Virus record (IMG/VR): IMGVR_UViG_3300028588_000027
Location: 1 to 59,103 of that record
DNA length: 59,103 nucleotides
Source: a virus
Taxonomy: Duplodnaviria; Caudoviricetes
Reading direction: 5' to 3' (one strand)
Shown here: piece by piece, positions 13,294 through 48,779 of the stretch
Layout of the letters: every line of letters starts with the position of its first letter
How positions within the stretch are numbered: the stretch's first letter is position 1
Notes under the pieces: generated by a model
What the model was told of the DNA's origin: nothing
Seen by the model: the letters and a program-made list of their open reading frames with translations, nothing else
Databases searched by the model: none
Translations under genes and position numbers: made by a program

Positions 13294-14322
13294 TTACAGC
13301 GCGCTGACGCCGACTTCTGCGACCGCCATCCAGCCGTGGTTCAGCACGTTGGCGGTGAAGTAGTTGGTGGCGCCGATGTAACCACGCTGGCCGAGTGGGT
13401 CGTTCTTGTCCTTCTTGCCAGGCGGGATGTAGGTGACGTCGATGGAGTCTTTGCCGCGCAGGGCAACCTGGCCCCATGCGTCCTGGCCGCACACGATCAG
13501 CGGGTAGACGTCGACGTTGACGCCGCCGATCGAGCTCAGGCCGGTGGCGCCCACAGGTGCGCCGGCGCCAGGGATCGACTGCAGCTCAGGCGACAGGATG
13601 AAGCGGAACGATTCGGCCGAGCCGAGTTCCATTTCGTGGGCCAGTTTGCGCTGGCCGTAGTTCGCGGTCGGGGTGAAGCCCGGCAGGTCACGAATGTCCT
13701 GTTCGGTATCGGTGTGCGCGAACACCAGGAAGGCCTGTTCGATTGCCTTGGTCGAGATCATCGCCGACGGCGCCAGCACGCCGGTGATGAACTTGGCGTG
13801 GTTGGCGCGCAGCGCGCGGGTCATCTTGCGCAGCAGCGGCAGGGTGACTTTGCCGGCCACGGTCGAACGGCTGGTACCGTTGGCGTAGAACTTGTTGGTG
13901 CAGGCCTTGACGGCGCCGTAGCGGACCATTTCGCGGACCAGGCCGAGGCGTTCGCCGGTCTGCTTTTTCATCTCGTCCACGATGTCGTCGCCGTCTTCGT
14001 GCAGGTCGACCATCTGATTCGTCAGCGCGTACAGCACCGCGTATTCGCTCAGGGTCTGTTCGACGTCCTGCGGGGTCAGGGTGTCGGCCGCCGGCGTGAC
14101 GCCTTCGGTGGTGATGTGCGCGAAGGCGTCCACGGTCCACTGGTTCGGGTTCTGCTGGGTCGAGCCATATGGCAGGTAGCGGCGGAAAACGACGGTCTTG
14201 CCGACGTTCTTCGGCTGCTGGCGCTGCTGGCCAGTGATGCCCAGCACTTCGACAGCGGTGGCGTGCGCCAGGATTTCGCCTTTCAGCTTGTTAATCCGGG
14301 CTGGGGTGTTGTAAGTCTGCAT
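13294..14322 (-). CDS. Major capsid protein, N4-gp56 family
   Basis: FRRY, EGVTP, HTD...DIRDLPGF, ELG..E.FRFI.SP, DVYP and DPLGQRGYIG motifs; follows the scaffold. Confidence 0.9.
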   Translation of the reverse strand: MQTYNTPARINKLKGEILAHATAVEVLGITGQQRQQPKNVGKTVVFRRYLPYGSTQQNPNQWTVDAFAHITTEGVTPAADTLTPQDVEQTLSEYAVLYALTNQMVDLHEDGDDIVDEMKKQTGERLGLVREMVRYGAVKACTNKFYANGTSRSTVAGKVTLPLLRKMTRALRANHAKFITGVLAPSAMISTKAIEQAFLVFAHTDTEQDIRDLPGFTPTANYGQRKLAHEMELGSAESFRFILSPELQSIPGAGAPVGATGLSSIGGVNVDVYPLIVCGQDAWGQVALRGKDSIDVTYIPPGKKDKNDPLGQRGYIGATNYFTANVLNHGWMAVAEVGVSAL

Positions 14323-15443: not shown

Positions 15444-15653
15444 CTAGTCCTGGCTATCGCCAGCGGCCAGCAAATGCTTAATTTCTGCGATCCGGCCGCG
15501 CACATCGGCGGTATCGGTCGGGTCAAGGTTGCCGTCGTTTTGCCGGCGCAGCAGGTCAAGGCGCGCCTGCAGGTGCGTGCGCATCTTCATCCACATGCCG
15601 CTGACCAGCTCGGCGTCGGTCAGCTTGAGGTCGCGGGGGTTTCCGTCGCTCAT
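15444..15653 (-). CDS. Small conserved protein downstream of portal
   Basis: W......L..RL..LR.QND...T..VRGRIAEIK pattern; ATGA overlap with the portal stop. Confidence 0.7.
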   Translation of the reverse strand: MSDGNPRDLKLTDAELVSGMWMKMRTHLQARLDLLRRQNDGNLDPTDTADVRGRIAEIKHLLAAGDSQD

Positions 15654-18001
15654 GCCTGGTATGCCTCGCCTTTCTCAGCACGCCCGGCCGGCTCGGTCGG
15701 TGGTGCGCTCACTTGTGGGCTGGCGCCCTTTCCGCCGGCGGTGGCCAGCGACAAGCGTTCTTGCGCCTGCAGCTTCATGGCCGTTTGCGCCAGCTGCGAC
15801 TTGACCTGCTCGAGCGTCAGCTGGTGCTTGCTTGCGTATTCCAGCTGCGCCAGCTGCAGGCGCATGTCCAGCTCGCGCTGCTGGCCTTCCTGGAAGATGC
15901 CTTCGCGGTCGGTATCGGCGGCGATCTTCTTCTCGGCCGTCTGCGCCTTCAGCTGCTCGCGCTCCATGGCCGCCTTCGCGGCGATGTTGGCCGCCTCGAT
16001 GCGTGGGTCGGCCGGTGGCGGCGCGTTCTTCTGCGCTTCCAGCAGCTTTGCCCATTCCTCGGGCGTGTACTGGAACCGGGCCGGGTCCAGGCGCTGGGCC
16101 TTGAGTGCTTCCACGATCCACTTGGCCGGGTCCAGCTTGAAAGCCGGGTCGTGGATCAGCGGCGCCATGGCCAGGATTGCCTGGTTCTGTGCGTCGCGCT
16201 CGAACAGGGCGCCAGAGCCGCGCGCCACGATCTTGAATTCACCCTTCTCGTCGTCGGCGCCGTACAGCAGCAGCCACTCGTAATAGCGGGTCAGGTGCGG
16301 CGTGGTGATGCGGTCGTCGTACTGCTTGGCGATCGCGCGCAGCGGCGTGTTGCTGTTGTTCGTCAGGATCGTCATGCCGCCCACGGTGTCCGTGGCCTGG
16401 CCTTGCTGGCCCTGCAGCAGCATCGGCAGGCCGGTGACGTCTTCGGCCATCTTGAGCGCCGCCTGCACGATCGACATAAGCTCGGCGGTCATCATCGGGA
16501 TGACGACGCTGGCCATGGCCTTGCTGACGTCATCAACCTTGGCGTCGGCGATCAGCTTCCACATCTTGCGCGGGCGCAGGTTGTAGTCGTCGTCCTTGCC
16601 CAGCGGCTTGACGATGCCGTCCATGATGATGATTTGCGGGCCTGCAGCCAGGCCGGCGTTGTCCATCATGTTGCGCCAGGCGCCGTTCAGGATGCGCTGC
16701 GCGGTGCGCACCTGGCGCGCCACGCCGATGCCGGCCCAATGGTCTTTGCGCGCCTGCCAGACCATGACGTCGTAGGGGAATCCGCCGGCGTCCAGGGTCG
16801 AGCGTGCCGCCTTGATGACGCGATCGTTGACCATCGTGATGACGACGGGAACAACCGAACCTTCTTCGACCGTCACGCCGGCCGCCGCCAAGTCTTCGGC
16901 GCTGGCCACGCCGTGGTAGTACCAGATTTCAAACTGCTCGGCGTCTGGCGCCTGGTAGTGGTGCGAACTGTCGAACTTGCGCTGTGCACCTTCGGCCAGG
17001 CACAGCTTGATGGTGTCCTCGAGGTACATCGGGTTGCCCTCGGTGTCGACGGTACCCAGCAGGTCGCGCAGCTGGCGCGCCGTGATGCGGTCGCGCTCCC
17101 ACACGAAGTTCCCGTTGTGAATGTCGTCGCCACAGGATGCGTCCGGGAAGAAATTCCAGTGGTCGATGGCCTTGGAGACGGGCGCCAGCTTGTTCTGCAG
17201 CTTCATCGTCAGGTTGCCGGCCTCGTCCTTTACCACGGCGCGAGACACGGACTTGCGCGGCGTCGGGCCTTTCAGGATCGACACGCCCACGCGGGCAGCG
17301 TCCTGGATGATCTTGCGCTGCTCGGCGTGGTACTGCGCCTCGCTGTGCCAGTCCTCGATGCGCTTGCGCGCCTTGTCGACCTTGGCTCCGGCTTCCTGCG
17401 CCATCATGCGCGCGGCCTGGCCGATCGTCGTCGGCGCACCTGGTGCGGCGTTCTGCAGCTGCAGCGGGCGGTCGTCGGTGAACGCGCCGATGATGTCAGG
17501 CACGATGGTGGAGCTGATGTCCCAATTGCGGTCATCCGTCGGCAGCAGCATGTCCGCCGCCCGGCCGGCCGAGAAGTCGACGTAGGGGCGCGTGATGTTG
17601 GCGAAGATGGTCGAGCCAGTGCCAACGGTGGCCTCTTCCTTGATCGAAGCGCCGCCCCGGCCGTTCAAGTCGCGCGGCTTGACCGTGTGCACGTTCTCGT
17701 GGCGGTTGGCGTCGTCAATGCCTTCATAGAATTCTTCATCCTCGCGCCAAATGTCCTCGATGCCCGAGCCGGCCCGGCCTTCGACTGCAGACTGGCGCTT
17801 CTTGGCCAGCGCCGCGGCTAAGGCGTCCAGCTTGGCCTGCTTGTGTTCGGCTTCCTGCAGGCGCTGCGCGGCGGCTTCCTCGTCCTCGAACGGGTCTTCC
17901 GTGTCCAGCTGGTCCAGGGCGCCGGGCGCTTCCTGTTCGCGCTTGGCCTGGTCGGCAGCAGCGCGCAGCGCCTGGCGGCGCCGTGCCTTCTGTTTGTCCA
18001 T
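15650..18001 (-). CDS. Portal protein
   Basis: 783 aa directly after TerL; NITRP, FFPD, FPYD and TVGGM motifs; C-terminal coiled-coil barrel. Confidence 0.85.
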   Translation of the reverse strand: MDKQKARRRQALRAAADQAKREQEAPGALDQLDTEDPFEDEEAAAQRLQEAEHKQAKLDALAAALAKKRQSAVEGRAGSGIEDIWREDEEFYEGIDDANRHENVHTVKPRDLNGRGGASIKEEATVGTGSTIFANITRPYVDFSAGRAADMLLPTDDRNWDISSTIVPDIIGAFTDDRPLQLQNAAPGAPTTIGQAARMMAQEAGAKVDKARKRIEDWHSEAQYHAEQRKIIQDAARVGVSILKGPTPRKSVSRAVVKDEAGNLTMKLQNKLAPVSKAIDHWNFFPDASCGDDIHNGNFVWERDRITARQLRDLLGTVDTEGNPMYLEDTIKLCLAEGAQRKFDSSHHYQAPDAEQFEIWYYHGVASAEDLAAAGVTVEEGSVVPVVITMVNDRVIKAARSTLDAGGFPYDVMVWQARKDHWAGIGVARQVRTAQRILNGAWRNMMDNAGLAAGPQIIIMDGIVKPLGKDDDYNLRPRKMWKLIADAKVDDVSKAMASVVIPMMTAELMSIVQAALKMAEDVTGLPMLLQGQQGQATDTVGGMTILTNNSNTPLRAIAKQYDDRITTPHLTRYYEWLLLYGADDEKGEFKIVARGSGALFERDAQNQAILAMAPLIHDPAFKLDPAKWIVEALKAQRLDPARFQYTPEEWAKLLEAQKNAPPPADPRIEAANIAAKAAMEREQLKAQTAEKKIAADTDREGIFQEGQQRELDMRLQLAQLEYASKHQLTLEQVKSQLAQTAMKLQAQERLSLATAGGKGASPQVSAPPTEPAGRAEKGEAYQA

Positions 18002-18013
18002 ACGGTTGTTTCC

Positions 18014-19555
18014 TTAATAGCCCACGCCGGCATCGTGCGGGCGGTGGGTGGTGACTACTGGCGCCGGGTCGCGGCTCACAGGCTGGACGTTCTCGGCAAA
18101 CGTCAGGGAAAGCGCGTCAGCGACGTCCGGAGACAGGCCGCCGCGCTTCTTGATCTTCTCTTTCGACTCGATGAGGATGCGGCTCTTGCTGTCGTAGGTG
18201 TAGCCGGGCTCCACGATGTCGGCCTGCAGGTCGTCGTCGTCTGGCACGCGCACCGGCTTGGCGGCAAACCAGTCACGCATGCGACACCACATTTCCGCGC
18301 GCTTGTTGTAGTACAGGTCGTCCTCGTCGGCGCTCTCGCTGCCCTGGACAGCCACCACGACATCGCCGTAGCCAAGTTCCTCGAGGCGGTCGTACACGCC
18401 CACGCCCAGGCCCACGATGTCGATGAACAGCTTCGTCGGCTTGTCGGTGTCGATGATCTTGGCCAGGATGCCGGCCACCTGCATCGTGTTCTTCTTGGCC
18501 AGCGTGCGAATCTTCGTCACCACGCGGCCACGACGCCAGATGATCGCCGTGCGGTCGTCGCCGTAGCGCGCCGGGTCGCAGCCGATCAGCAGCGGCGCCG
18601 ATACCGACGGCAGCAGCGTGCGTTCCTTGCGGGCTGCGACGATGTGCGGTACCGGGATCAGGGAATCGCGCTTGGCGCTGACGAATGCCTCGCTCGAGGT
18701 GTTCGGGTATTCCTGCTCGAAGCGGCTGGCGTCGCCCTTGAAGTCGTCGTCAATCTTCCGGCGCCGGAAATATAGCTGGCCGTCGTTCAGGCCGTGCAGG
18801 TGCGCCAGCTCGTCTTCCTCCACCGTGCGCTGAAAGTCGCGCGGCGGCGTCTTGGTGTATTCCTCCTGCCAGAACCACGGCACGAAGATGGCCAGGTAAT
18901 CAGACTGGCCACGCTCGGCCATGCGCCAGCGGGTGTGGAAGTCGCCGCCCACGCCGTTCGCCGTCGACTCGAGGAATACTTCGCTGTCGTCCATATCGGT
19001 AATCGCCTGCCCGAGACCGGGCCAAATCTTGTCCGGGTTCGGCCAGAAGCCGACTTCCGAGCCGTGGAAATACTGAATCGTGCCGCCGCGACCGACCTCG
19101 GCATTGCCGGCGGTGGCCACGCCATAGCGACTTTTCAGCTTCGAGAAGAACAGTTCCTTCGCGTTGGCCTTGCCGGCGACGGGCTTGCAAATCCTCGGCA
19201 GCTGTTCGTGAAACAGCTTCGTCATGTTGAACAGGCCGTCGGTCGAGTCCGCCAGGTGCGTCAGGATGAAGGCGCGCTTGCCCTTGTTCAGCGACGTCCG
19301 CCACATGAACCGGCCCTCCACGTAGGTGCTGATGCCTTGCTGCCGGCCTTTCAGCACCAGCACGCGAACCTTGCCGGTCTTGGCCAGCTGTTCCTCTACC
19401 TTTTCGTGCACGTACAGCTGCGCGCGGTTGAGCGTGAACGACTGGATCGTGCCTTTTTTGGTCAGCACCTTGAGGCAGCGCGACGAGTAGAGTGGGAAGT
19501 CCGCCTTAAGGACGTCAATCTTGCGATTCCGTTCTGCTCGCTCTGCTGGGGTCAT
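18014..19555 (-). CDS. terL: Terminase large subunit
   Basis: Walker A KGRQQGIST, FHGSEVGFW, ESTANG, nuclease IGCDPA..GDD and SPDVADA. Confidence 0.95.
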   Translation of the reverse strand: MTPAERAERNRKIDVLKADFPLYSSRCLKVLTKKGTIQSFTLNRAQLYVHEKVEEQLAKTGKVRVLVLKGRQQGISTYVEGRFMWRTSLNKGKRAFILTHLADSTDGLFNMTKLFHEQLPRICKPVAGKANAKELFFSKLKSRYGVATAGNAEVGRGGTIQYFHGSEVGFWPNPDKIWPGLGQAITDMDDSEVFLESTANGVGGDFHTRWRMAERGQSDYLAIFVPWFWQEEYTKTPPRDFQRTVEEDELAHLHGLNDGQLYFRRRKIDDDFKGDASRFEQEYPNTSSEAFVSAKRDSLIPVPHIVAARKERTLLPSVSAPLLIGCDPARYGDDRTAIIWRRGRVVTKIRTLAKKNTMQVAGILAKIIDTDKPTKLFIDIVGLGVGVYDRLEELGYGDVVVAVQGSESADEDDLYYNKRAEMWCRMRDWFAAKPVRVPDDDDLQADIVEPGYTYDSKSRILIESKEKIKKRGGLSPDVADALSLTFAENVQPVSRDPAPVVTTHRPHDAGVGY

Positions 19556-28451: not shown

Positions 28452-28700
28452 TCAGTGGATGCGCGCTTCTGGCGGCCTGGCATGGCGGCCGTTCGGGTTG
28501 TTGGTGACGTATGCCGTTGCGCTCGACATGCGCCGGATGGCATCGTTATGGCTGGTGGCCTGCACGATGCTCAAGCCGGTCACGCCCAGCAGCATCGTCA
28601 GCACGTTGGCGACATCGCGCATGTTCGTGCAGCCGGCATCGTTCACCAGCTGCTTGACCAGTGCTTGCGCGCGGTTTTCCGCTTCTTGTTCATCAATCAT
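28452..28700 (-). CDS. Hypothetical protein
   Basis: Start MIDEQE with GAGGG SD. Confidence 0.6.
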   Translation of the reverse strand: MIDEQEAENRAQALVKQLVNDAGCTNMRDVANVLTMLLGVTGLSIVQATSHNDAIRRMSSATAYVTNNPNGRHARPPEARIH

Positions 28701-28900
28701 GGTTTTGCCCTCGTAATGACAGCCATGACGGCGCTGCGCAGCGCGTCGCGGCGCCCGTCTCGAATACCGCAATACTTCTGCGCCATGCCGAAGGCAATCA
28801 GCACCAGGTAGGTCCAGCTCGAGGAATCCAGAGCATACAGGGCGCCAATCGCTCCGACGGTCGATACCCAATCGACCAGGATGGGGGTTATTTTTTTCAT
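28697..28900 (-). CDS. Small membrane protein
   Basis: MKKITPIL; two hydrophobic segments. Confidence 0.55.
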   Translation of the reverse strand: MKKITPILVDWVSTVGAIGALYALDSSSWTYLVLIAFGMAQKYCGIRDGRRDALRSAVMAVITRAKP

Positions 28901-28950: not shown

Positions 28951-29436
28951 CTACTGGACGATGAACCAGTCTTCTGCCAGGGCGTCGCTGCAGCTTGGCG
29001 CCCAAGTGCTTACGGTGTCGTCGGCGCCTTTCAGCGCCAGGTAGGCGTTGTACGGGACCAGCACGCCGCGCCCGAAGTGATCGGCGGCCACGCGCGTCGT
29101 TACCGGGTACGCATTCGACGGGACCAGGTAGACGAACATGCCGGCGCCGTTCCAGCCAGCCCTGGCGATCGCCTTGCCCTGCTTGAGTGCTTCCAGGGCC
29201 AGGCCGAACGTCATGGCGCTGCAGGGGCGGTAGGCGGCGTCAAACGCGGCTTTCGGGCTCCAACTGACGTAGCCGGCCCGGTCTGGCATGTTCGGCTCGG
29301 TACCGTCCAGGTACTCGACCAGGTAGCCGTCGTCGGCGCCGTTCTCGTTGGCTGGCAGCGCCCAACCGCGGTATTCGTTGTAGGCCAGGCGCGTCATCGG
29401 CTGGGCCGCGACGATCTTGGTACCGATGAAGTTCAT
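28951..29436 (-). CDS. tad2: DUF2829/Tad2-family signal-sponge domain fused to an N-terminal IGTK...SWSPK domain
   Basis: C-terminal MTFGLALEALKQGKAIARAGWNG...W.PS.SD.LAEDW is the DUF2829 signature. Confidence 0.8.
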   Translation of the reverse strand: MNFIGTKIVAAQPMTRLAYNEYRGWALPANENGADDGYLVEYLDGTEPNMPDRAGYVSWSPKAAFDAAYRPCSAMTFGLALEALKQGKAIARAGWNGAGMFVYLVPSNAYPVTTRVAADHFGRGVLVPYNAYLALKGADDTVSTWAPSCSDALAEDWFIVQ

Positions 29437-30086
29437 GCCGGGCTCCCGAAGGCGGCGATGCGCTCGGCGAGAATATTGGCGTAGGTCTGCATCGCCGTCA
29501 GCTGGCGATACAGACGATTCTTTTCCAGGCAGTCCAGGCCTTCATGCGCTGGCGTCGACTGGAAAGCGCGCAACTTCTCGATGCGAGCCTTCAGTTCCTG
29601 GTGTTCCTCGAGCACGCGCTGCTGGTGCGGCGGATAGTCGGCGTTCGGCTGGCCAGCCTGGTGCTTGCCCAGCGCGTCGAGCTGTGCGCGGTGGTAGTCC
29701 AGGCCGACAGGCTTCGACGGCAGCGCGCTGGATGGGTGCACCTGGCTGTAGGACGGATGAATCACCTGGTTCGTGCTGCCCAGCGCCTCGAGCTGGCGCG
29801 CCAGCACGTAGCCCTCGAATTCCCACAGCTTTTGGCGGGCCAGGCCGACGGCGTTCTTGATGGCGTACTTGCGGCCCTTCTCGGCATCGAACAGCAGCGC
29901 GCTGACGCATGCCGACATGCCCAGCGCCACGTTGAACCCGTTTGGCAGGGTGGCGGTGGCGATCGTGGTATTCGTGTTCGGGATATGCGCCGTCTCAAAT
30001 TTCAGGCTGGCCACCAGGGCGTTGATGCGTTCTTCGGAGACGCGCGGCGCCGTCGTTTCCGCGGTTTTGGATGGGTTCAAATCCAT
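29433..30086 (-). CDS. Fusion of Gp49-family (Acb4-like) and crAss001_48/Sequestin-like domains
   Basis: LPNGF.V..G.SACVS...FDAE.G...A...A.QKLW.FEGY (N4 gp49/Sf6 gp66 family); C-terminal HQQRVLEE..EL..RIEKL..F...QL.AM..Y..IL.ERI..F. Confidence 0.75.
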   Translation of the reverse strand: MDLNPSKTAETTAPRVSEERINALVASLKFETAHIPNTNTTIATATLPNGFNVALGMSACVSALLFDAEKGRKYAIKNAVGLARQKLWEFEGYVLARQLEALGSTNQVIHPSYSQVHPSSALPSKPVGLDYHRAQLDALGKHQAGQPNADYPPHQQRVLEEHQELKARIEKLRAFQSTPAHEGLDCLEKNRLYRQLTAMQTYANILAERIAAFGSPA

Positions 30087-30113
30087 GGTCTATTTCCTCT
30101 TGTTAGTATTTAC

Positions 30114-30599
30114 TTATGGTGCCAGCACGATTGCCGGGGCGTCTGGCTCCGTGGTCGGGGCGGTCATCGCCGGCGCCGTCTCGAGCAAGGCATGCGCCAG
30201 GAAGTCGGCCATGCGATCCTGGTCGGCTTCGGTGCGCTTGTCTTCCGCCGGCAGGCCGCCGCCTTCCTCGAACTCCTGCAGCATGCCGTTGACGACCTCG
30301 AAGCGCACCGGGTCGGCTTGGGCCATGACGGCAAAGGTGCGCAGCGCGCGGTAGCGGTCGGCGTCGGTCAGGCTTCCGGATACGCGGGCGATCAGGTTCG
30401 GCTGTTCGTCGGCGATCGCCTGCAGCATGGCGTGCGCGGCGTCCAGGCCGGGCTGGAAGGGCGCGTTCTTCGGCACGCCGACGGTTTCCAGGCGCCCGTC
30501 ATCGGTAACGGTGATGAGGACCAGTGCGTCGGCGGCCAGGATGCGCTGGGCCAGGCTTGCCGGCAGGTCGCTGGCGGGATTGGTGCTTACGGTTTCCAT
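30114..30599 (-). CDS. Hypothetical acidic protein
   Basis: AAGGAG SD; DADRYRALR motif. Confidence 0.65.
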   Translation of the reverse strand: METVSTNPASDLPASLAQRILAADALVLITVTDDGRLETVGVPKNAPFQPGLDAAHAMLQAIADEQPNLIARVSGSLTDADRYRALRTFAVMAQADPVRFEVVNGMLQEFEEGGGLPAEDKRTEADQDRMADFLAHALLETAPAMTAPTTEPDAPAIVLAP

Positions 30600-30628: not shown

Positions 30629-31765
30629 TTACTCGTCTACTACTTCGGCCGGCTTCCTGTTGATGCCGGTTTGCTGGCGGAGCTCGGCCAGGCGGGCCTG
30701 GCGTTGCTCATTCGTCAAATCTTCCTCACCACCGGACGGCATTGGTGGTGTGTACGGCGTTGGTACCGCACCTGCTGCCGGGTCTTCTCCGCGGTCCAGC
30801 TTGTCCAGGTGGGCCTGGATGCGCGCCACGAAGTCGCGCGGGTATTCGCCTGGGGTCGGCTTCAACGGCGGCGTCAGCGTCATGCCGAAGGCCTCCATGC
30901 TTTCCTTGGTCGCCCACCAGGCGCCGCGGTTGTTCTTCGCTTTCGGCTCCACATACGGCCGCACCTCGTCTTTCCAGCGGCCTCCGTTCAGCCAGGTGGC
31001 AGCACGCGGAATGTACTGGCCGTTCTCACGCATCCAGTCGTTCCCCTCCTTTTGCGCTGCAATGGCGGCCAGCAGGGTGTCGAGCATCGGCGCATCAGGG
31101 TCGTGCTTGTTCAGCTTGGCCCAATTCTTCTCGACCGTGATCCAGGCCCGCTGTGCGTCCTGCTTGCCGGCATTCCATGGGTAGGCTTCCCAAAATTTCT
31201 CGAATGGCTCCACGCCGTCATCGCCAGATGACGAAGGGGTTAAGGTTTTAGTCTTACTCTTACTCTCCCTCTTCTTCTTAGGGCGTTTCGTGCCGTTTCC
31301 GTCCGTTTCATCCGTTTCACCGTTTCCGGTGTCTTTGTCGTCGTCGTTACCGCCTTGTTCGCCGCCTAAGTCTTTGTTTTCTTGGGCCTGTTGAGCTAGT
31401 CGTTGCTTCTCTCGGAACTGCTGCACGCGCTTGGTGCTGGCGCCTGCTGGCTCGGATTTTTCGCGCTTTCCTTGCCGTTCCTCCCACTTCGTTACGTCTC
31501 CCGTTTCGTGTAACAGCTTTCTCCGTTTCATAGCGTTACATAGCGTTTCACAGTCGGGAATCTGCAGCGTGTACGACATTTCCTCGTAGTCGATGCCCAC
31601 GATAGAGCCACGGTCGACGGAGTGTGATGCGTACTCGAGCAGGTAGGCCCATGCACCAACAACAGAAGCAACTGGCAGCGCACATTCCTCTGCCACCATC
31701 CGAAACTTCATGTCTGCAGCGGTGCCGTCCCACCATTTGAACCACGGCATCCGGTCCATCGTCAT
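30629..31765 (-). CDS. Replication initiator (lambda O/DnaD-like)
   Basis: MPWFKWW N-terminal wHTH, KWEERQ, STKRVQQFRE, FEKFWEAYP and YIPRAATWLNGGRWKDE; internal iteron-like repeats. Confidence 0.8.
   Translation of the reverse strand: MTMDRMPWFKWWDGTAADMKFRMVAEECALPVASVVGAWAYLLEYASHSVDRGSIVGIDYEEMSYTLQIPDCETLCNAMKRRKLLHETGDVTKWEERQGKREKSEPAGASTKRVQQFREKQRLAQQAQENKDLGGEQGGNDDDKDTGNGETDETDGNGTKRPKKKRESKSKTKTLTPSSSGDDGVEPFEKFWEAYPWNAGKQDAQRAWITVEKNWAKLNKHDPDAPMLDTLLAAIAAQKEGNDWMRENGQYIPRAATWLNGGRWKDEVRPYVEPKAKNNRGAWWATKESMEAFGMTLTPPLKPTPGEYPRDFVARIQAHLDKLDRGEDPAAGAVPTPYTPPMPSGGEEDLTNEQRQARLAELRQQTGINRKPAEVVDE
31284..31550. repeat. Iteron-like CGTT(T/A)C repeats; candidate replication origin
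   Basis: Copies start at 31284, 31294, 31304, 31313, 31321 and 31490, 31502, 31524, 31534, 31544, mostly about 10 bp apart. Confidence 0.6.
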
Positions 31766-40600: not shown

Positions 40601-40630
40601 AAGGCCCGCATAACGCGGGCCTTTTTCTTT
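40601..40630 (+). terminator. Intrinsic terminator at the convergence of the two arms
   Basis: AAGGCCCGC-ATAAC-GCGGGCCTT followed by a T tract. Confidence 0.75.
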
Positions 40631-43600
40631 ACGGCGTGGTGCTGGTGCGCGCCTCCACCTTCTCGTTGAAGCGCTCCATCAGGGTCCGGATGCGCAGCTC
40701 GGTTTCCTTCACCCTGGCCTTGTCGCCCTTCTCGAGCAAGTCAGACTTGCGTTTGCGCAGGGCGGCAATTTCACGCTGCACCGCCTGCGCCTGGTCGGCC
40801 ATCTTCGCTTCTGGATGGTCGGCCAGGTATTCCCGCGCGCCATCCTTCGCCTGGCGCCGCCCCTCGAGCTCCTGTTCCGCCTCATTCAACTGTTTCAGGT
40901 TGTCGTAGAAGCGCGTCGACACGCTGGACTTATCGCCGGCGTCTCCGTAGAAGCGGCCGGCCAGCGGTATTTTGTACGCTGGCAGTTCCTCGCCGGTGAT
41001 GATCGCCGAGACGGTTTGCTGTGCCTTCAATGCCTCGCGCCCCACGCCTCCGGTGAGCTGGCCAATCAGGTAATCCACCTGGTCTGGCGTCGGGCTCCAC
41101 TTCCCGGGCGTGTACTCGTTGCCGCCAGTGATCGTGTTCAGGGCGTAGGAAACGGCCTTACCGACGCCGCTGGCCGTGTCCTTCGCCCGGGTATGGCCAG
41201 GCGTCGGCTTGAGGCTGTTGAAGTCTTCCTTGGCGATCTTCTTGCCCTTCCAGTCCTCGTTCATTTCCAGCGCCACGATAGGATCGGTCACGGTGAACGA
41301 CAGCGTTTGCGTCACCGATCCGCCGGCGCCGATCGGGTTGAAGGTGTCCATGATCGCGCTGGCCAGGTGCGAGACATACTTGCCTGGCTTCTTGGCGCCG
41401 CCCAGCGCGAACTCTGTCACCAGGCGGCCGGTCGTCGGCAGGAATGCGAAGCCCAGCGGGTACGGGATCGAGACGTATTTCTTTCCCCCTACCGGGATCA
41501 CCAGGTTTTTCGCGCGCACGTACTCCGGTGGCTCCTGGTCATCGAAGCCGGCCGCCGCCAAGAGGAACGCCTGCAGTACGCCAATCATCAGGCCGCCGGC
41601 GATGATCTTCTTGCCGGCCGGGCCGTTCAGGGTCTTGGCCATACGGGCTATGCCCTGTGTTGCCGCGTTAAAGAACGCATACAGGGAGTTGACCTGTGCA
41701 CCGACGGCGCCCTTGCGGTTGAAGTTGACCGTGAGATTCTTGGCCAGGCTTGCCGCGCGCTGGGGCGTCATGCCTTCGGCCTTGGCGATCTTGTACGCGG
41801 CCATCCTGGTGACGTTCTCGAGCGCCTCGTTGTAGTCACTCAGCCAGTCCAGCACGGCCTTGCCGGCCTTGCCTGCCGGGTTCATGGTCATGGCGCGCAG
41901 TTCCTTGGCCAGCTCCTTTGCGCGGTCGTCGCTGGTACTGAACATGGCGCGGTGGCCAGTAATCCCGCCTTCCTTCTGGAACTCGGCCCACAAGGCAGCA
42001 TCGGCGCCGGTCATCTGGTCCAGGCGCAGGCCATGCTTGCCGGCGGCCAGCAGCATGCGCGATGCCTCGGCCACGAATTCGACCTGCTTGCCGGCGATCG
42101 GAGTCGATGACAGGTTGACGGCGCCCTCGCCCAAATCGCGCGTCAGGTTGACCACGCCGAAAATGGGGTTGTACTGCGTGTTGACGGACGCAAACCAGCG
42201 AGTGGCCACGCCGATAATCGACAGCACGCGGTTGACGCCATCGTTGCCGATGTTGTTGATTGTCTCGGCCATGCGGCGGGCGCGCGGCTCGTCCTTGTTG
42301 AAGAAAATGAAGCGGTCTTCGCCGCCCACGCGCACCGAGACGACATGATCGCCAAGCCGTTCGCGCAGGTCCAGCACGCGCTCCACCAGGCCGGTCTTAG
42401 GGTTGACGCGGCGCTTGCGCACTTCCTCCACCAGCGCCGCGGCGTGCGCCGGCGTCAGGCCCATGGCCTGCAGTTCAGCGTCCAGGGCGGCCGGGTTCTT
42501 TTGCGGGTTGACCGGCTTCCAGAATGCTGGGTTCGGCGCCTGCAGGGCCAGGCCATACAGCGCCAGGTCCAGACGGTTCTTTTCGCCGCGCACCACGGCG
42601 CGTTCGCGCGCCATGGCCAGGTTGGCCAGGATGTTCACGACCTTGCGTTTCGAGCCCATGCGGCGCTTGCTGGCCGGGCCGCGCACGGAGAAGCCGCGGC
42701 CGGTACCGTTGCCGCCGCCGGCGTCCATGTCCTCGCGCATCAGCGGGACATAGTGCTGGTACGTGGCATTCCAGGCGTCGATAGTGTTCTGCGATTCCAG
42801 GCCATAGTCGACCAGCATCTGCTGGGTTTGCGCCGTCATGGCGTCGACGCGCGCGGCCAGGGCGTTATACGCGGCGCGCTTTGCCGGCGGCAGGCCGGCC
42901 AGGTAGTTGCGGGCGTCGGCCGTGTCGATGCCCGAACCGCCATCCTGCATGGCTGGATCGTTCGGATTGATGCTGGCGATCTGGTCGTTTGCTTCCTCGG
43001 CGTGGCGCATGTGCAGGAACTGCTCGAATTCCTCGAGCGCGACGCCGCGCGCCTGCATGTCGGTCAGCAGCGGGCGCAGCTCGCTGTTCAGGTATTCCTT
43101 GAAACCGGTTGCTGCGCGGCCGTGGAACAGTTCTTCCTGCAGGTAGGGGTCCCACTTGTCCTCGAGGCCGGTCACGACGTCGCGCACGGTGTCAACGGTG
43201 CGTTTGATGTCGATATGCTTGTCCTGCAGGACTTGAATGACGTCATCCAGGCGCGTCATGTCTGGCGCGGTCCAGGTTGCCGCCGGCGGCGGGTTGGCCA
43301 GCGCGCGCAGGGCATAATCGCCCTGGCCAAAAGCCTGCTCCACCAGCATGCGCGGAGACAGCTTCTCGCCGGTTCCTTCCAGCACGGCCTGCAGGCCGCG
43401 CAGCACAGCCGCATCCGACGGCAGGCCCAGCCAGCCGCGGGCCTTCTGCACCAGTTCGCCCAGCCAGGTCTTGGCCTTGGCCACCCACGAACCGGCCTCA
43501 TAGCGCTCGGACAGGATGCGCGTCGCGTTGACGGCCCAATACTCGGACGGGTTCGACAGCTGGTAGTGCTGGTCGTAGTCCAGCACGCCGTCGGCGAAGG

Positions 43601-46600
43601 CCTGCTTCGCACGCTTGGCTGCGGCGCTGCTGCTGGCCATGGTGAGCAAGTCGTCCATGGCGGTGCGGGTCTTCTCGTCGGCGGCAGCGTAGGCGCGGCC
43701 GAATGCCTTGCGCCAGGCCTGCACAATCTTGGCCTGGACGTCGGCCGGCATCATCCGTTCAGTGTGGTGCAGGATTTCGTGCACGGCCGTGCCTTCGTTC
43801 GCCGCGCCTTTGAACAGCGATATCACGCGCGACACCGGGTTGTACATGCCGGCGGTACCGCTTTCGCCGGCGGCGCGCAGGGAAATGCCCAAGTCCTCGG
43901 CGATCGCCGGGTTCTTGTTCAGCGCCCACAAGGCAAAGCTGACGGTCGCCTCGTCCAGTTCGCCAGTGCGGCGCGCGCGCATCAGGCGCTCCATGATCCA
44001 TTCCGGGCCACGCTCGCGCGGCTTCGGGGTTGCCTTGCTGGCGTTGCGGTCCTCGAGCGCGGACACGATGACGTCGACGCGCAACTGGAAGTCCTTGTCG
44101 GTAATCCGGCCTTCCTCGAGCGCGCGGCGCGCCGCTTTCAGCTTGGCCAAGGTGGCCACGCGCTTTGGCTCGCTGTCGGTCGGCGTGCCGGCCATCAGCG
44201 GCGGCAGCTGGTCGGAAACGTCGCGCAGCATCGACGGGTTCGACGGGTCGAACATGCCGGCGTTGCCGATGGCCGACTTCACCTGCTCAGGGGAGAACAC
44301 GACATACTGGTTTTCGTTGGCGCTTCCTTCGTAGCCGGTTTCCTCGTTGCCGTTGAAAGCGCTGGTGATGATAAGCCCGTCGTGGCCGTTTTCCTTCGCG
44401 TAGGCGATCGCGTCTTCGACGGCATACGATTCATAGTCGAGCTTCCCATTCAGGTCGATCCGGTGCGGGTTCTGCAGCGACAAATAAACCGGCATGACAT
44501 GCTCGCCCTCGCCGTAATAAATGCCGCTGCCACCGCTGGCATACCACGATGCCTCGTCTGTCTCGTCGGTGAACCAGATTGCGCCTTCGACGGATTCACC
44601 ATTACGGAAGGCGTCGCCCTCGAACTCGCCGCTGCGGCCGTGATAGACAACCATCGGCTGGCCACCTTTCATCACTTTGCTATTGCCGAACCATTTTTTA
44701 AAAGCTGCCGTATTGGTCTGGCGCTCGGCGATGTCGCGCAGCGTTGGCGCCACGATCGGGCGCCCGCGCTCGTCGGTCTGGCCGTCGAACTCGCGCCAGA
44801 ACTTGATTTGCGCCATGAAGTCCGGCGCCACCAGGTTGCCGTTGGTGTCGCGGATCGGCCGGCGCACGCCGTCGACCTCGATGGTGCGTTGGTCGGTGAT
44901 GTCGCGCAGCACCGTCTCGCCCAGCCCTGCAGAGACTTCATCCAGGGCGCCGGCTTCGTCCATGAATGCCGTGCGATCGGCGGCCGACTTGAACAGGAAC
45001 CCGCGCAGCGCGCCGCCGCCCACGAACTTGTTGTACCGGCCACCGTGTTGCTTGGCGATGGCCAGCGCCTGCTTGTACGTCTCCGGACTGGTGCGGTTGA
45101 GCATGGCGGCGCCGAACAGCGCCTCGCCGGTCTTCGTGTGCTTGAACTCGAACTGCGCATAGAAGCGCTCGGCGCCGGTGGCGCCTTCGGCCGCGGCGCG
45201 TACCTTCTTGCTGATTGGCGCGGCCGGCTTGGCTTCCTCGATTGCGATGTCTTCGGCTACCGTCTTGACGCGGCCCGGTACCGTGCTGTGTTCGAGGCGG
45301 TCGAACAGGTCTTCCACCGTCTCGGCGCTGACGTAATCGCGGCGCACCTGGTTGGGCGCCTTCTCCGGATCGGCGATCTTGTCCAGGATGATAATTTTCG
45401 TCATGGCGCCGGTACCGGCCCGGCCGAACGTGGCGGCCGGCAGATTGATTTCCGCTACCAGGTGCATGTCCTTCGGCGCATCCTCGGCGTAGAGGAAAGC
45501 ATCAAGGCGCTTGTCTGCCATGTTCCCGGTCGGCAGCAGCGCCACGATCCGGCCGCCTTCGCGCAGGTGCTTGAAGGCTTTGGCCAAGTGTGGCGTCGAC
45601 AGCGAACCGCCTTTGCCGAATGGCGGGTTCATTACGATGGCGTCGTACTTGTTGGAAACGTGTAGGTCTTCAAAGTGCTGTTGCTCGAAGCGGGCATTGC
45701 TGCCTTCGATGACCAGGCGGGCGCGGTTAATCAGCGGCGTCTCCGGCTCCACGATCGTCTTGTTCGTCTGCGCCGGGAACCAGCGCGCGATGGCGCCGTG
45801 GCCGGCGGACGGCTCCATGACGTCCTCGCCCACGCGAATATCGGCCCACTCGACCATCTTCATGCCGACGGGCTCGGGCGTGGCAAAGTAATCATTGCCC
45901 TCGGCCGACTTGCTGGCGCTGTTGCGCTTCAGCTGGCTGTAGTAGAAGGTCTTCGCCTTGTCCCATTCGGTCAGCGCCTTGGCCGTGTTGCGGTCCCGGG
46001 CCTTGCCGCCAGTGCCGTCGGTGTCGCTGACTGTCGCCGGCGCGCTGTCCTGGAAGGCTTCAATGATTGCTTCCTTCAGGCCGCGGGCCTGGTCGCCCAT
46101 GGCCAGCGCCTCGGCCGTGTCGGCGCGCTGCGCGATCGTCTCGGCAAAGGTGCGGCGTTCCCATTCGGTCCCGGTGTTCGCGTAGTGGAACAGGGCGTTC
46201 GATACCTGGCCGGTGCGGTAGATGCGGCCCTCGAGCTGAATCAGGGCGGTAGGCGTGCCTTGCATGCCGATGTTGACCATCACGCGGCGGTACTTGCCGG
46301 TGGTGTCGTGCAGGCTGATACCCTCGCGGCCCTTGTCGGACTGCAGGATGATGAGGCGAGCGCTGCCGTTGTCGTCGTTGAACTGGACTTTGTTGGCCTC
46401 GAGCTGCTTGGCCGGTACCGAACCGTTGTGCACCAGGGCGTCAGGGAATGCCGCCTGCAGCGTCTGCAGCGCCGATCGCGCCGGCACTTGTAGGCTGGCG
46501 AGGTCCGGGCGCGCGGCCTGAAATTCGCGGCCCAGCGCGGCCAGGTCGATTTCCTTGGGTGCGTTGTTCTCGTAGACCGTCGACACGCCGTTGATGCCGC

Positions 46601-48779
46601 GCATGCTGAACGGGTTGAAGGAACCGCCTTTTTTGTAGTCGTGCACGACGACGACCTTGCGGCCGGCGTCCAGCTGCGCCTGGATGCTGGGAATGGCTTC
46701 CTCGGCCTTGATCGCCTCGAGCAAGTACCGGCGCGACAGGTAATCGAACTGCTTCATCACCGGCTGATACAGGTGCTTGAATTTCGGGTGCTCGCGCATG
46801 AACTCGAGGCCTTCGTCAATGGCCGAACCCAGCGCGGATTCCACCATGACGAACTTGCGCTCGTAGTCGGCTTCCACCTCGAGCATGCGGCCCGACAGGG
46901 CGCCCTCGGCCTTGAGCCAGTTATTGAACTGGCGCGCCATCAGTCCCTGGTCGACGTTGCCGTCTGGCTCGGTCAGCTTGTGGTACCGGATGCGATAGCC
47001 GAAGTGCTGCACGAAGAAATGCGCGCGGCCGTCCTGGTTGCTGTTGCCGATCCGGCCGCCGTCGCCGTAGTTGAACAGGTAGCCCTCGGCATAGTCCACC
47101 GCCTTGACGTAGGCGAATGGCGTCGCCGACAGCATCAGGGTTTTCGGGCGCTTGATGGGGGCGTTGGCGATCGCCTCGTACTCGGCGCGCTGGCTTTCCT
47201 CGCGCTCGCTGATTTCCTTCATCAGCTTGTCGAACTCGGTACGCGCGGCCTGGTTGCCGTCGGCCTTGGCCGGCGCCGGCGGCAGCGCGGCCAGGCGGTC
47301 GTACAGGTCGCGGTTCTTCATCCGGGTGTAGGCAGACCATCCGGACGGGTGATAGGTGAGTGCCTGCAGGGACTCAAGCGCCAGCGTCTTCTTGCCGTCG
47401 GCCGCCGCCATGACGCGGTGCGATTCGTCCAGCGTCACCAAGTCCCAATTGCGGTCTGCGAGGGTACGGTTCTGGCCAAAGTTGGCGTAGGTGGTGATGA
47501 CGATGCCGGCGTCGCCGTTGTCGTCCAGGCCGTCGAGCATCTTCGCTTCCAGGCCCAGCTCGGCCAGCGAACGAATCCAGTCCTGGCCAATGCCGTCGTT
47601 CGGTACCACGACAATCTGATTGTCTTTGCCCTGGCGGGCGAAGCGGGCGATGATACCGCCGCCGGTGAAGGTCTTGCCGGTACCGGTCCCGTTGGTGAAC
47701 ATGACGCCCGGCTGCTTTTCCGGGTTGGCGAATCGGGCTTCGGCAAAGGCGACGTCTTCGCGCTGACCGTCCAGCAGGTACGGCAGCGTGGCGTCGATGT
47801 TGGCGCGGTCGCCCGGCTTGACGGGTACCGCGTTGGCTTTCTTCTGTGCTGCGCGCTTTCGGTCTAGCGGGTTGCGTGCGCCAGCAACTGCAGCAGGTAA
47901 TGCTTCTGCGTCGGGTCCAGGTTGCGATTCTTGGCGCCCAGCTCGGCCGCTTCCTCCGGCGTCTCCATCGGTGGAATCGCTTGCGCCAGGTCGCCCTTGC
48001 CCGGCTTGGCCAGGTACGTCGATATCGCTTTGCGCTCCACCAGCAACGGCACGACGTCCAGATACGCCAGCGCTACCGGCGCTTCCGCGCCCTGGCTGGT
48101 CAGTCGCTCCATCAGTGCCTGGTGCTCGTCCGTCAATTCCTGGTCCGACATCGAAAAGACTCGCTCGAGCTCCGAGTTCACCATCTGCCCGGTCGCCTTC
48201 ACGCCCTGCCACACTTCCGCGGGTACCATCAACATTGTTCTCTCCCTCGAGTTTTCCATCCCGGTAATCACGGACAAAGCGCGTGATGTAGGGTTTCATA
48301 TTAGCAGCAACTGGCTTGCCGAATTTGTCCACGACGGCCTGCACCACGGCGCGCATAACGTCCATGATGTCGCTGCCGGCGCTGGCGTAATCCTTCGCCG
48401 CTTCCTGGAACAGCGGCTTTGCCTTCGCATAGGTTTCATCGTTGAACGTCAGGCCGCTGTTGAGCTTCGTGCCGCCGAACAGCTCGCCCAGCGCGTCGAT
48501 GGCATTCACCGTGCCGCTGGCCAGGTTCTTGACGGCCGACACGGCCGCATCGCCGGCGCCGCGTTTCTTGCCGCCGCGGGCGGCGTACTGGTCGGCGACG
48601 GTCTGTTCGATGCTGGCCTGCTCCATCTTGGCCAGGTCGATCTTATCCAGGACTACCTGCTCAATCGCCGCGGCCGGGGAGAACCCGCGGGCCTCGTACT
48701 CGTCGGCCAGCGTGAGCATTTCGTTAATCGGTAACTTGTCGGCCAGCGCCAGGCGGTCGATGCAGTTAGTAAATGGCAT
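40629..48779 (-). CDS. DarB-like polyvalent injected protein: SF2 helicase, N6-adenine methyltransferase, ART-like domain, HExxH peptidase, LPD38-like C-terminus
   Basis: NGTGTGKT, DESH, SAT, QLEGRIYR; YFATP, EPSAGHG, NPPF; FKKWFG...VYHG; HEILHH; VNFNRKG...LYAFFNA. Start MPFTNC after a GGAG SD. Confidence 0.88.
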   Translation of the reverse strand: MPFTNCIDRLALADKLPINEMLTLADEYEARGFSPAAAIEQVVLDKIDLAKMEQASIEQTVADQYAARGGKKRGAGDAAVSAVKNLASGTVNAIDALGELFGGTKLNSGLTFNDETYAKAKPLFQEAAKDYASAGSDIMDVMRAVVQAVVDKFGKPVAANMKPYITRFVRDYRDGKLEGENNVDGTRGSVAGREGDRADGELGARASLFDVGPGIDGRAPGTDGATDQPGRGSAGSAGVSGRRAVAGGAQSDIDVPGQAGQGRPGASDSTDGDAGGSGRAGRQESQPGPDAEALPAAVAGARNPLDRKRAAQKKANAVPVKPGDRANIDATLPYLLDGQREDVAFAEARFANPEKQPGVMFTNGTGTGKTFTGGGIIARFARQGKDNQIVVVPNDGIGQDWIRSLAELGLEAKMLDGLDDNGDAGIVITTYANFGQNRTLADRNWDLVTLDESHRVMAAADGKKTLALESLQALTYHPSGWSAYTRMKNRDLYDRLAALPPAPAKADGNQAARTEFDKLMKEISEREESQRAEYEAIANAPIKRPKTLMLSATPFAYVKAVDYAEGYLFNYGDGGRIGNSNQDGRAHFFVQHFGYRIRYHKLTEPDGNVDQGLMARQFNNWLKAEGALSGRMLEVEADYERKFVMVESALGSAIDEGLEFMREHPKFKHLYQPVMKQFDYLSRRYLLEAIKAEEAIPSIQAQLDAGRKVVVVHDYKKGGSFNPFSMRGINGVSTVYENNAPKEIDLAALGREFQAARPDLASLQVPARSALQTLQAAFPDALVHNGSVPAKQLEANKVQFNDDNGSARLIILQSDKGREGISLHDTTGKYRRVMVNIGMQGTPTALIQLEGRIYRTGQVSNALFHYANTGTEWERRTFAETIAQRADTAEALAMGDQARGLKEAIIEAFQDSAPATVSDTDGTGGKARDRNTAKALTEWDKAKTFYYSQLKRNSASKSAEGNDYFATPEPVGMKMVEWADIRVGEDVMEPSAGHGAIARWFPAQTNKTIVEPETPLINRARLVIEGSNARFEQQHFEDLHVSNKYDAIVMNPPFGKGGSLSTPHLAKAFKHLREGGRIVALLPTGNMADKRLDAFLYAEDAPKDMHLVAEINLPAATFGRAGTGAMTKIIILDKIADPEKAPNQVRRDYVSAETVEDLFDRLEHSTVPGRVKTVAEDIAIEEAKPAAPISKKVRAAAEGATGAERFYAQFEFKHTKTGEALFGAAMLNRTSPETYKQALAIAKQHGGRYNKFVGGGALRGFLFKSAADRTAFMDEAGALDEVSAGLGETVLRDITDQRTIEVDGVRRPIRDTNGNLVAPDFMAQIKFWREFDGQTDERGRPIVAPTLRDIAERQTNTAAFKKWFGNSKVMKGGQPMVVYHGRSGEFEGDAFRNGESVEGAIWFTDETDEASWYASGGSGIYYGEGEHVMPVYLSLQNPHRIDLNGKLDYESYAVEDAIAYAKENGHDGLIITSAFNGNEETGYEGSANENQYVVFSPEQVKSAIGNAGMFDPSNPSMLRDVSDQLPPLMAGTPTDSEPKRVATLAKLKAARRALEEGRITDKDFQLRVDVIVSALEDRNASKATPKPRERGPEWIMERLMRARRTGELDEATVSFALWALNKNPAIAEDLGISLRAAGESGTAGMYNPVSRVISLFKGAANEGTAVHEILHHTERMMPADVQAKIVQAWRKAFGRAYAAADEKTRTAMDDLLTMASSSAAAKRAKQAFADGVLDYDQHYQLSNPSEYWAVNATRILSERYEAGSWVAKAKTWLGELVQKARGWLGLPSDAAVLRGLQAVLEGTGEKLSPRMLVEQAFGQGDYALRALANPPPAATWTAPDMTRLDDVIQVLQDKHIDIKRTVDTVRDVVTGLEDKWDPYLQEELFHGRAATGFKEYLNSELRPLLTDMQARGVALEEFEQFLHMRHAEEANDQIASINPNDPAMQDGGSGIDTADARNYLAGLPPAKRAAYNALAARVDAMTAQTQQMLVDYGLESQNTIDAWNATYQHYVPLMREDMDAGGGNGTGRGFSVRGPASKRRMGSKRKVVNILANLAMARERAVVRGEKNRLDLALYGLALQAPNPAFWKPVNPQKNPAALDAELQAMGLTPAHAAALVEEVRKRRVNPKTGLVERVLDLRERLGDHVVSVRVGGEDRFIFFNKDEPRARRMAETINNIGNDGVNRVLSIIGVATRWFASVNTQYNPIFGVVNLTRDLGEGAVNLSSTPIAGKQVEFVAEASRMLLAAGKHGLRLDQMTGADAALWAEFQKEGGITGHRAMFSTSDDRAKELAKELRAMTMNPAGKAGKAVLDWLSDYNEALENVTRMAAYKIAKAEGMTPQRAASLAKNLTVNFNRKGAVGAQVNSLYAFFNAATQGIARMAKTLNGPAGKKIIAGGLMIGVLQAFLLAAAGFDDQEPPEYVRAKNLVIPVGGKKYVSIPYPLGFAFLPTTGRLVTEFALGGAKKPGKYVSHLASAIMDTFNPIGAGGSVTQTLSFTVTDPIVALEMNEDWKGKKIAKEDFNSLKPTPGHTRAKDTASGVGKAVSYALNTITGGNEYTPGKWSPTPDQVDYLIGQLTGGVGREALKAQQTVSAIITGEELPAYKIPLAGRFYGDAGDKSSVSTRFYDNLKQLNEAEQELEGRRQAKDGAREYLADHPEAKMADQAQAVQREIAALRKRKSDLLEKGDKARVKETELRIRTLMERFNEKVEARTSTTP
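47864..48235 (-). CDS. Nested out-of-frame gene (123 aa) inside the polyvalent protein linker
   Basis: GAGGGAGAG SD before ATG; G/C-ending codons favour this frame; globular helical composition. Confidence 0.65.
   Translation of the reverse strand: MLMVPAEVWQGVKATGQMVNSELERVFSMSDQELTDEHQALMERLTSQGAEAPVALAYLDVVPLLVERKAISTYLAKPGKGDLAQAIPPMETPEEAAELGAKNRNLDPTQKHYLLQLLAHATR

Follow-up and report, generated by a model that had tools for sequence, protein, structure and literature searches.

A probable two-headed immune-signal sponge, joining Acb4 and Sequestin domains, in an uncultured 59-kb tailed phage

Could one phage polypeptide sequester the signals of two separate bacterial defence systems? 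The question is raised by a gene on the minus strand of IMG/VR virus record IMGVR_UViG_3300028588_000027 (Duplodnaviria; Caudoviricetes). The window analysed here is the whole linear record of 59,103 nucleotides (nt), which has a CheckV completeness estimate of 100% and a GC content of 61-68%. A first-pass annotation, made from the letters alone, had described the gene as a fusion in which an N-terminal domain with the N4 gp49/Sf6 gp66 signature is joined by a polar linker to a helical hairpin at the C-terminus, and had proposed that its product could capture signals of both the cyclic oligonucleotide-based antiphage signalling system (CBASS) and Thoeris. We conclude that this tailed-phage gene probably specifies an immune-signal sponge with two heads, and we place the protein with high confidence in the published class of Acb4-Sequestin double sponges. 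The features concerned are the following.

29433..30086, minus strand: Acb4-linker-Sequestin fusion gene, 217 amino acids (aa) (open reading frame (ORF) list, Pfam, PHROG 3934, third-position GC content)
30095..30100, minus strand: ribosome-binding site AGAGGA, 8 nt 5' of the fusion ATG (sequence read directly)
29793..30038, minus strand: Acb4 domain, PF13876, residues 17-98 (Pfam, six-frame search, AlphaFold2, Foldseek)
29634..29789, minus strand: polar linker, 52 residues (100-151) (model confidence, composition)
29454..29633, minus strand: Sequestin domain, PF21825, residues 152-211, helical hairpin (Pfam, six-frame search, AlphaFold2, ligand residues)
29433..29436, minus strand: stop/start overlap ATGA, 4 nt, between the fusion gene and the next gene (coordinates, sequence)

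A single open frame beginning with ATG covers both domains. The third-position GC content (GC3) of the gene is 0.83, similar to that of the adjacent genes, and PHROG 3934 spans residues 8-214 (E 1.2e-32), thereby taking in both domains. An assembly or frameshift artefact was ruled out by the one open frame, the even GC3 and the like architecture of relatives. The hidden Markov model search proposed at first pass (Phage_gp49_66, crAss001_48) returned both families far above their curated cut-offs: PF13876 (Phage_gp49_66) at residues 17-98 with an E-value of 1.2e-15 (58.2 bits, cut-off 27) and PF21825 (crAss001_48) at residues 152-211 with an E-value of 3e-18 (65.9 bits, cut-off 24.8). Six-frame profile searches were run on the whole record and on 14 control genomes. 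Each family was found once in the record, PF13876 at 29793-30038 (60.4 bits) and PF21825 at 29454-29633 (67.6 bits), and neither matched any of the 14 controls. NCBIfam returned no family for the four proteins of the gene block. The PDB was searched with the fusion protein, giving five matches that were all ClpP (E about 0.25, taken as chance), and with a nine-sequence profile of it, giving one match at E 0.83; Acb4 in the PDB was reached by fold search only, neither by sequence nor by profile.

A structural model of the fusion was built with AlphaFold2 on a 96-sequence alignment. Its mean predicted local distance difference test score (pLDDT) is 85.7, with values of 90-98 in residues 11-100 and 150-213. 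The three-part layout read at first pass was recovered: the gp49/gp66 signature corresponds to the PF13876 match, 63% of residues 100-151, which separate the two domains, are polar, proline or glycine, and the C-terminal hairpin is formed by the predicted helices 153-176 and 186-212.

The family identities given in the first-pass annotation agree with the published reports. SPO1 Acb4 belongs to PF13876, a family of 1,331 homologs with a fold like that of double-stranded RNA-binding domains (dsRBD), and all eight homologs tested bound 3'3'-cyclic GMP-AMP (3'3'-cGAMP), those of phages with Gram-negative hosts binding 3'3'-cAA too (Chang et al., PMC11722364). Tal et al. (bioRxiv 10.1101/2025.07.12.664507) started from the frequent Tad2-Acb4 fusion and reported PF21825, with 60 Tad2 and 91 Acb4 fusions, as the unknown Pfam family most often fused to either. 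They named it Sequestin and counted T4 Y16Q among its members, most of which stand alone; ten of the 13 PF21825 proteins tested were inhibitors of type I Thoeris, through sequestration of 3' cyclic ADP-ribose (3'cADPR). Their Fig. 1C legend includes a PF21825-Acb4 fusion of Pseudomonas phage YH6. Capture of both kinds of signal by one polypeptide has been reported for the homologous gp59 of Pseudomonas phage Ab09 (10.64898/2026.06.04.730250), a protein of 147 aa in which residues 1-83 are assigned to Acb4 and 84-147 to Sequestin. Ab09 gp59 binds 1'',3'-glycocyclic ADP-ribose (gcADPR) very tightly, binds 2',3'-cAA also, and strongly inhibits type I Thoeris. The whole protein is a tetramer, its Acb4 part alone is a tetramer and its Sequestin part alone is a dimer. 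For the 217-aa protein described here the dual-sponge proposal is supported by homology, through the family scores, the fold and the conserved Sequestin ligand residues.

The ligand residues were examined in an alignment of the Sequestin part of the fusion with that of Ab09 gp59, with T4 Y16Q (a 64-aa ORF located in NC_000866 by PF21825, E 1.8e-19) and with six relatives from the database. Six columns are invariant, and they include R157, E161, Q195 and R209 of the fusion, which correspond to R7, E11, Q45 and R59 of T4 Y16Q. The residues reported to contact 3'cADPR are R8, E12, Q47 and R61 in SequestinA, equivalent to R7, E11, Q45 and R59 in SequestinB, and alanine at the glutamate, the glutamine or the last arginine abolished activity (10.1101/2025.07.12.664507; the contact glutamine is printed as 'O' in the paper text and was taken as Q). 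The domain was modelled as all-helical and about 60 aa long, with helices at 153-176, 179-182 and 186-212 and pLDDT values of 93-98.

For the Acb4 half, the model places a helix at residues 18-26, strands at 29-34, 40-46 and 52-59, and a long helix at 68-106, all with pLDDT values of 90-98. This is the dsRBD-like fold of the Acb4 protomer in 9e4w, in which helices flank three antiparallel strands. Foldseek comparison of the fusion model with the PDB gave five matches at E<=1e-3, all of them chains of 9e4w (SPO1 Acb4 with 3'3'-cGAMP); the best had E 7.6e-4, probability 1.00, a template modelling score of 0.61 normalised by target and 19-21% identity. The next matches were Rv2632c/Rv1738 and dsRNA-binding domains (E 0.02-0.2 for the latter), which agrees with the dsRBD likeness of Acb4 described in PMC11722364. 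Residues that are near-invariant across 150 relatives, namely G71, A75, W88, G92, Y93 and L95, are kept. The fold and family of the Acb4 half are secure.

The same fold matches could be read in another way, with the protein outside counter-defence altogether, its dsRBD-like fold binding RNA or serving a structural or regulatory role in replication. Besides the dsRNA-binding domains in the fold search, the position of the gene, within the replication module, speaks for this. However, the best fold matches are to Acb4 itself and likeness to dsRBD is a published trait of that family; sponge activity has been demonstrated by direct experiment for both families, the Sequestin ligand residues are conserved, and the adjacent gene carries Tad2. 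We regard a role outside counter-defence as very improbable. The genomic context fits a counter-defence locus: the phage genome is complete, with head, portal and terminase genes, and the fusion gene is placed between DUF1064 and the replication initiator, beside a Tad2 gene, in a block where neither a promoter-like nor a minus-strand terminator-like site was found.

The Acb4 ligand positions were compared by aligning the Acb4 part of the fusion with that of Ab09 gp59, with SPO1 Acb4 and with nine homologs that stand alone; SPO1 Acb4 was located by PF13876, and its numbering was checked against the residues named in the paper. The SPO1 contacts K36, F48, E49, V56, Y57, F62, N63, I66, T70 and K81 pair with N39, F51, N52, C60, V61, F66, D67, K70, Y74 and E89, respectively, of which N63 is reported to contact the ligand through its backbone (PMC11722364).

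Several points weigh against a fully active sponge at both ends, and they are gathered here. Among the ten SPO1 contacts, identity is limited to two, F48 (F51 in the fusion) and F62 (F66). N39 and N52 take the places of the guanine-reading pair K36 and E49, and E89 that of the phosphate-binding K81. With eight of ten contacts differing, the ligand range of the Acb4 half is not readable from sequence. Identity to tested proteins is low in both halves: the Acb4 half shares 40% over 65 aa with its counterpart in Ab09 gp59, and the Sequestin domain aligns at 27-31% identity with those of Ab09 gp59 and T4 Y16Q. No solved Sequestin appeared among the PDB fold matches of the fusion model. Three of the 13 PF21825 proteins tested by Tal et al. 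were without Thoeris inhibition (10.1101/2025.07.12.664507), and for Ab09 gp59 itself the binding of 3',3'-cGAMP is reported to be weaker than that of gcADPR and the inhibition of type II-A CBASS to be partial (10.64898/2026.06.04.730250).

These differences could mean that the Sequestin half is the only effective inhibitor, the Acb4-like half acting mainly as a tetramerisation scaffold that captures little or no CBASS signal and raises the local number of Sequestin pockets. Such a division of labour would accommodate the replaced contact positions, the weaker cGAMP binding and partial CBASS antagonism of Ab09 gp59, and the finding that its isolated Acb4 part is a tetramer and its Sequestin part alone a dimer. 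However, all eight diverse Acb4 homologs tested bound 3'3'-cGAMP despite their divergence (PMC11722364), N4 Acb4 is reported to bind cyclic di-AMP (c-di-AMP) at about 111 nM (PMC13640721), and the six near-invariant residues are retained in the fusion. Since the family is diverse and every one of those eight homologs bound cGAMP, the contact mismatch does not exclude binding, and we consider a mainly scaffolding role unlikely.

Alternatively, both halves could be sponges with the specificity of the Acb4 half shifted away from 3'3'-cGAMP to c-di-AMP, cUA-type or 2'3'-linked dinucleotides, in which case the CBASS types countered would differ from those first proposed. The replacement of the guanine-reading pair by N39 and N52 points this way, as do the binding of 3'3'-cAA by homologs from phages of Gram-negative hosts and that of 2',3'-cAA by Ab09 gp59. 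Set against this, every homolog tested still bound 3'3'-cGAMP (PMC11722364), and such a shift appears quite unlikely, a little more so than the scaffold.

The reading that we prefer is the two-headed sponge, and the fusion most likely works as the published Acb4-Sequestin class does, by analogy with those proteins. The oligomeric states, ligands and in vivo effect given here are taken from published relatives. The Acb4 domain would assemble into a homotetrameric pinwheel, and the four pockets for cyclic dinucleotides, one at each interface between protomers, would capture CBASS signals, namely 3'3'-cGAMP and related dinucleotides. The Sequestin hairpins would pair as antiparallel dimers with two interface pockets, capturing the type I Thoeris signal 3'cADPR (1''-3' gcADPR) via R157, E161, Q195 and R209. 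A flexible linker of 52 residues may let the Acb4 and Sequestin assemblies form in one particle. With their signals held by the fusion, the CBASS and Thoeris effectors would stay off, and the probably co-translated X-Tad2 protein adds a third known sponge domain. The likely cost, again by analogy, is that sponge-sensing guard systems could detect the phage: Ab09 gp59 is reported to render its phage visible to Panoptes (10.64898/2026.06.04.730250), and Acb4 to be sensed by PanDA (PMC13640721).

Relatives were sought in two protein collections. Within the searched length range, a collection of 5.8 billion proteins held eight relatives, of which seven (41-51% identity) carry both families and one PF21825 only. 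HMMER search of 1.84 billion cluster representatives gave 2605 matches at E<=1e-3, 200 at E<=1e-10 and seven at E<=1e-30. Architectures were counted in the best 150 of the 2605 matches, the query included. Pfam assigned PF13876 to 147 of these, PF21825 to 77, a Tad2-like domain to five and RyR to three; the first two counts together mean that at least 74 representatives contain both families. By our own domain profiles the same 150 comprise 72 with Acb4 only, 62 Acb4-Sequestin, nine Sequestin-Acb4, two Acb4-Tad2 and two Sequestin only, together with single cases of Tad2-Acb4-Sequestin, Tad2-Sequestin-Acb4 and Acb4-X-Sequestin, X being a domain of the neighbouring gene described below. The Acb4-Sequestin fusion is a common architecture, and the long tether is the unusual part here. 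Megablast of 12 kb around the fusion gene against 50,697 phage records gave no match; tblastn of the fusion against the same records matched 65, and a coverage of >=80% was reached only in Vibrio phage 1.138.O, at 26.6% identity.

Other domains were observed in these relatives. Three of the 150 representatives join Acb4 to an RyR domain (PF02026), and at least two further small, beta-rich and unannotated N-terminal domains recur in fusion with Acb4 and/or Sequestin (P0007, P0135, P0142, P0174, P0175, P0191 and others; P0008, P0250 and P0258). The fusion-partner approach to new sponge families looks far from exhausted.

The linker was modelled at pLDDT 50-64, with one short predicted helix at residues 131-140. 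Its 52 residues compare with a median gap of 15 in 70 relatives with Acb4 followed by Sequestin, 16 of which have a gap of at least 48 residues. Clear similarity to the linker sequence was found in one relative only, P0131 (49% over 41 aa, E 2e-8). Within the linker, a core of 28 residues is also similar (54% identity; E 0.005, with some 280 sequences in the database) to the stretch joining Tad2 to Acb4 in a four-module protein encoded by the related contig L010. This likeness hints weakly that the linker, instead of being a simple spacer, may have been left behind by module shuffling. Given that X sits between Acb4 and Sequestin in six relatives (P0151, P0286, P0288, P0290, P0291 and P0293), a decayed X domain was considered as the origin of the linker; this was rejected, as the X profile does not match the fusion protein.

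Directly 3' of the fusion lies a gene in which X is joined to Tad2.

28951..29436, minus strand: X-Tad2 gene, 161 aa, directly 3' of the fusion gene
29221-29436, minus strand: X domain, residues 1-72, conserved and unannotated, about 70 aa
28957-29214, minus strand: Tad2 domain, residues 75-160 (PF11195, PDB matches)

The two genes are probably translationally coupled, because the stop codon of the fusion and the start codon of X-Tad2 overlap by 4 nt (ATGA). The Tad2 domain matched PF11195 at E 2.8e-24 (85.9 bits, cut-off 25), and over residues 74-161 it has sequence relatives in the PDB at E 3e-25 (9eib, ModTad2, and 8v3e, Tad2). For X, no match was found in Pfam or NCBIfam. It has relatives in 1288 proteins at E<=1e-3. 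The best 120 of near-query length were sorted by our own profiles into 101 X-Tad2, 13 X-Sequestin and six X-Tad2-Sequestin proteins; P0023, among these 120, is a 95-aa fragment without a precomputed Pfam family. All 16 longer X proteins carry Acb4, Sequestin, Tad2 or RyR domains too, with X in an N-terminal, internal or C-terminal position. Among the matches listed, 135 of 136 X proteins also contain one or more known sponge-type domains. X is far better conserved than the Tad2 domain joined to it: across 106 X-Tad2 proteins the median identity to the window copy is 74% (70-80%) for X and 45% (36-76%) for Tad2, a contrast that is inflated by the selection of this set for similarity in X.

X was predicted to fold as strand-helix-strand-strand-helix (pLDDT 91.9, predicted template modelling score 0.76). 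Fold search of the PDB gave no match at E<=1e-3 (best E 1.7), and matches in BFVD were to uncharacterised phage proteins only, including a protein with a Tad2-like domain and, more weakly, one with a RyR domain. A diverged Acb4, Sequestin or Tad2 was ruled out as the identity of X by hhalign probabilities of 0.1-0.4%. Lockin was set apart by its published description only (a curved, mostly beta hexamer), and TadIV-1 is unlikely, being set apart by distribution only, with its homologs placed in Straboviridae by the paper that describes it. No description of X was found in the papers searched: a full-text search on N-terminal domains of Tad2/DUF2829 proteins came back empty, and the term 'N-terminal' is not used by Tal et al.

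Published sponges typically have positively charged pockets, and the net charge of X, -3, argues mildly against a nucleotide pocket. The fusion-partner reasoning behind the discovery of Sequestin by Tal et al. applies equally to X. Seven experimentally characterised sponge families are listed in an October 2026 review (PMC13712596). We tentatively raise the possibility, which we hold to be less likely than not, that the Acb4-Sequestin gene is one half of a four-module cassette in which X is either an eighth sponge family or a module protecting phages that carry sponges. Such protection may be directed, for example, against the sponge-sensing guard systems Panoptes and PanDA. X is the part of the locus that could open something new.

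The wider genome was annotated largely through PHROG, with the following features located.

13294-14322: major head protein (PHROG)
15650-18001: head-tail adaptor / portal (PHROG)
18014-19555: large terminase (PHROG)
28452-28871, minus strand: short ORF between X-Tad2 and DUF1064, residues 58-120 matching phrog_3691 (E 1.1e-9)
30114-30599, minus strand: upstream ORF, 161 aa, directly 5' of the fusion gene
30629-31765: replication initiator (PHROG)
40629-48788, minus strand: giant ORF, 2719 aa (giant-protein PHROGs; phrog_10691, 1424 bits)
52192-57807, minus strand: giant ORF, 1871 aa

Further PHROG matches along the record include a tail fibre and an Erf-like recombinase. No isolated phage has a terminase more than 47% identical to the one encoded here. 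The two giant ORFs fill a large share of the genome, and the longer one has stretches like DNA methyltransferase and helicase.

The replication initiator, the upstream 161-aa ORF, Acb4-Sequestin, X-Tad2, the short ORF and DUF1064 form a same-strand block. Between 27800 and 32200 a promoter scan found no site, and the three terminator-like sites found are all on the plus strand, with none on the minus strand. The true start of the short ORF is probably an internal methionine, because residues 58-120 alone match phrog_3691. The upstream 161-aa ORF is without a Pfam, PHROG, NCBIfam or ESM Atlas match; it is conserved beside the sponge gene of two related contigs (L008, 59% identity; L010, 39%) and may be a further counter-defence gene.

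Relatives of the fusion are encoded on three viral contigs. L010, which comes from a contig of 58 kb, is syntenic with the window and shares HNH, orf125, the replication initiator, orf161, DUF1064, orf201 and orf178 at 33-64% identity. At the corresponding genome position (3332-4618 of L010, plus strand) it has one ORF of 428 aa with the order X-Tad2-Acb4-Sequestin, a four-module build that also occurs in P0281, P0283, P0284 and P0287. L008 has Acb4-Sequestin, with no X or Tad2 within 4 kb on either side. The site behaves as a variable counter-defence slot, in which modules are fused, split and reordered.

The value of the finding itself is confirmation, in that a dual CBASS/Thoeris sponge was recognised by reading a sequence without tools. 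The finding also takes the Acb4-Sequestin architecture beyond the tested N4-like phages, into an unrelated and uncultured phage lineage with a high-GC genome of 59 kb, and it illustrates how freely sponge modules are reshuffled, given that a syntenic relative has all four in one 428-aa protein in another order. Because sponge-carrying phages are targets of the guard systems Panoptes and PanDA, the three- or four-sponge cassette is a natural test case for the cost of stacking sponges.

The Acb4-Sequestin design has already been reported for another phage and tested there, and the gene described here is a diverged further example with an unusually long linker. The closest comparison is with Ab09 gp59 (HG962375 ORF59), to which the YH6 protein in Fig. 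1C of Tal et al. is similar. Both Ab09 gp59 and the fusion carry Acb4 at the N-terminus and Sequestin at the C-terminus, and the R/E/Q/R positions of Sequestin are kept in both; the Sequestin part of Ab09 gp59 was missed by BLASTP with the fusion. Ab09 gp59 is without a separate linker, whereas the fusion has one of 52 residues. Ab09 is an N4-like Litunavirus in which gp59 neighbours Bes1/Bes2, whereas the fusion comes from an uncultured phage of 59 kb and neighbours X-Tad2.

SPO1 Acb4 (9e4w) has its Pfam family and fold in common with the fusion, where F51 and F66 stand for the stacking residues F48 and F62. However, SPO1 Acb4 is a stand-alone protein of 96 aa with 19-21% structural identity to the fusion and with the other eight ligand contacts changed. 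T4 Y16Q (64 aa) and SequestinA/B likewise have the hairpin family and the four ligand residues in common with the fusion, in which the domain is C-terminal and 31% identical to T4 Y16Q. The four modules found in one polypeptide in L010 are divided in the window between two overlapping genes, Acb4-Sequestin and then X-Tad2. Finally, an Acb4-Tad2 fusion of Pasteurella phage Pm86 is reported to cancel type I Thoeris and type I CBASS (10.1101/2025.07.12.664507); there the partner of Acb4 is Tad2 and not Sequestin, whereas in the window Tad2 lies on the neighbouring polypeptide.

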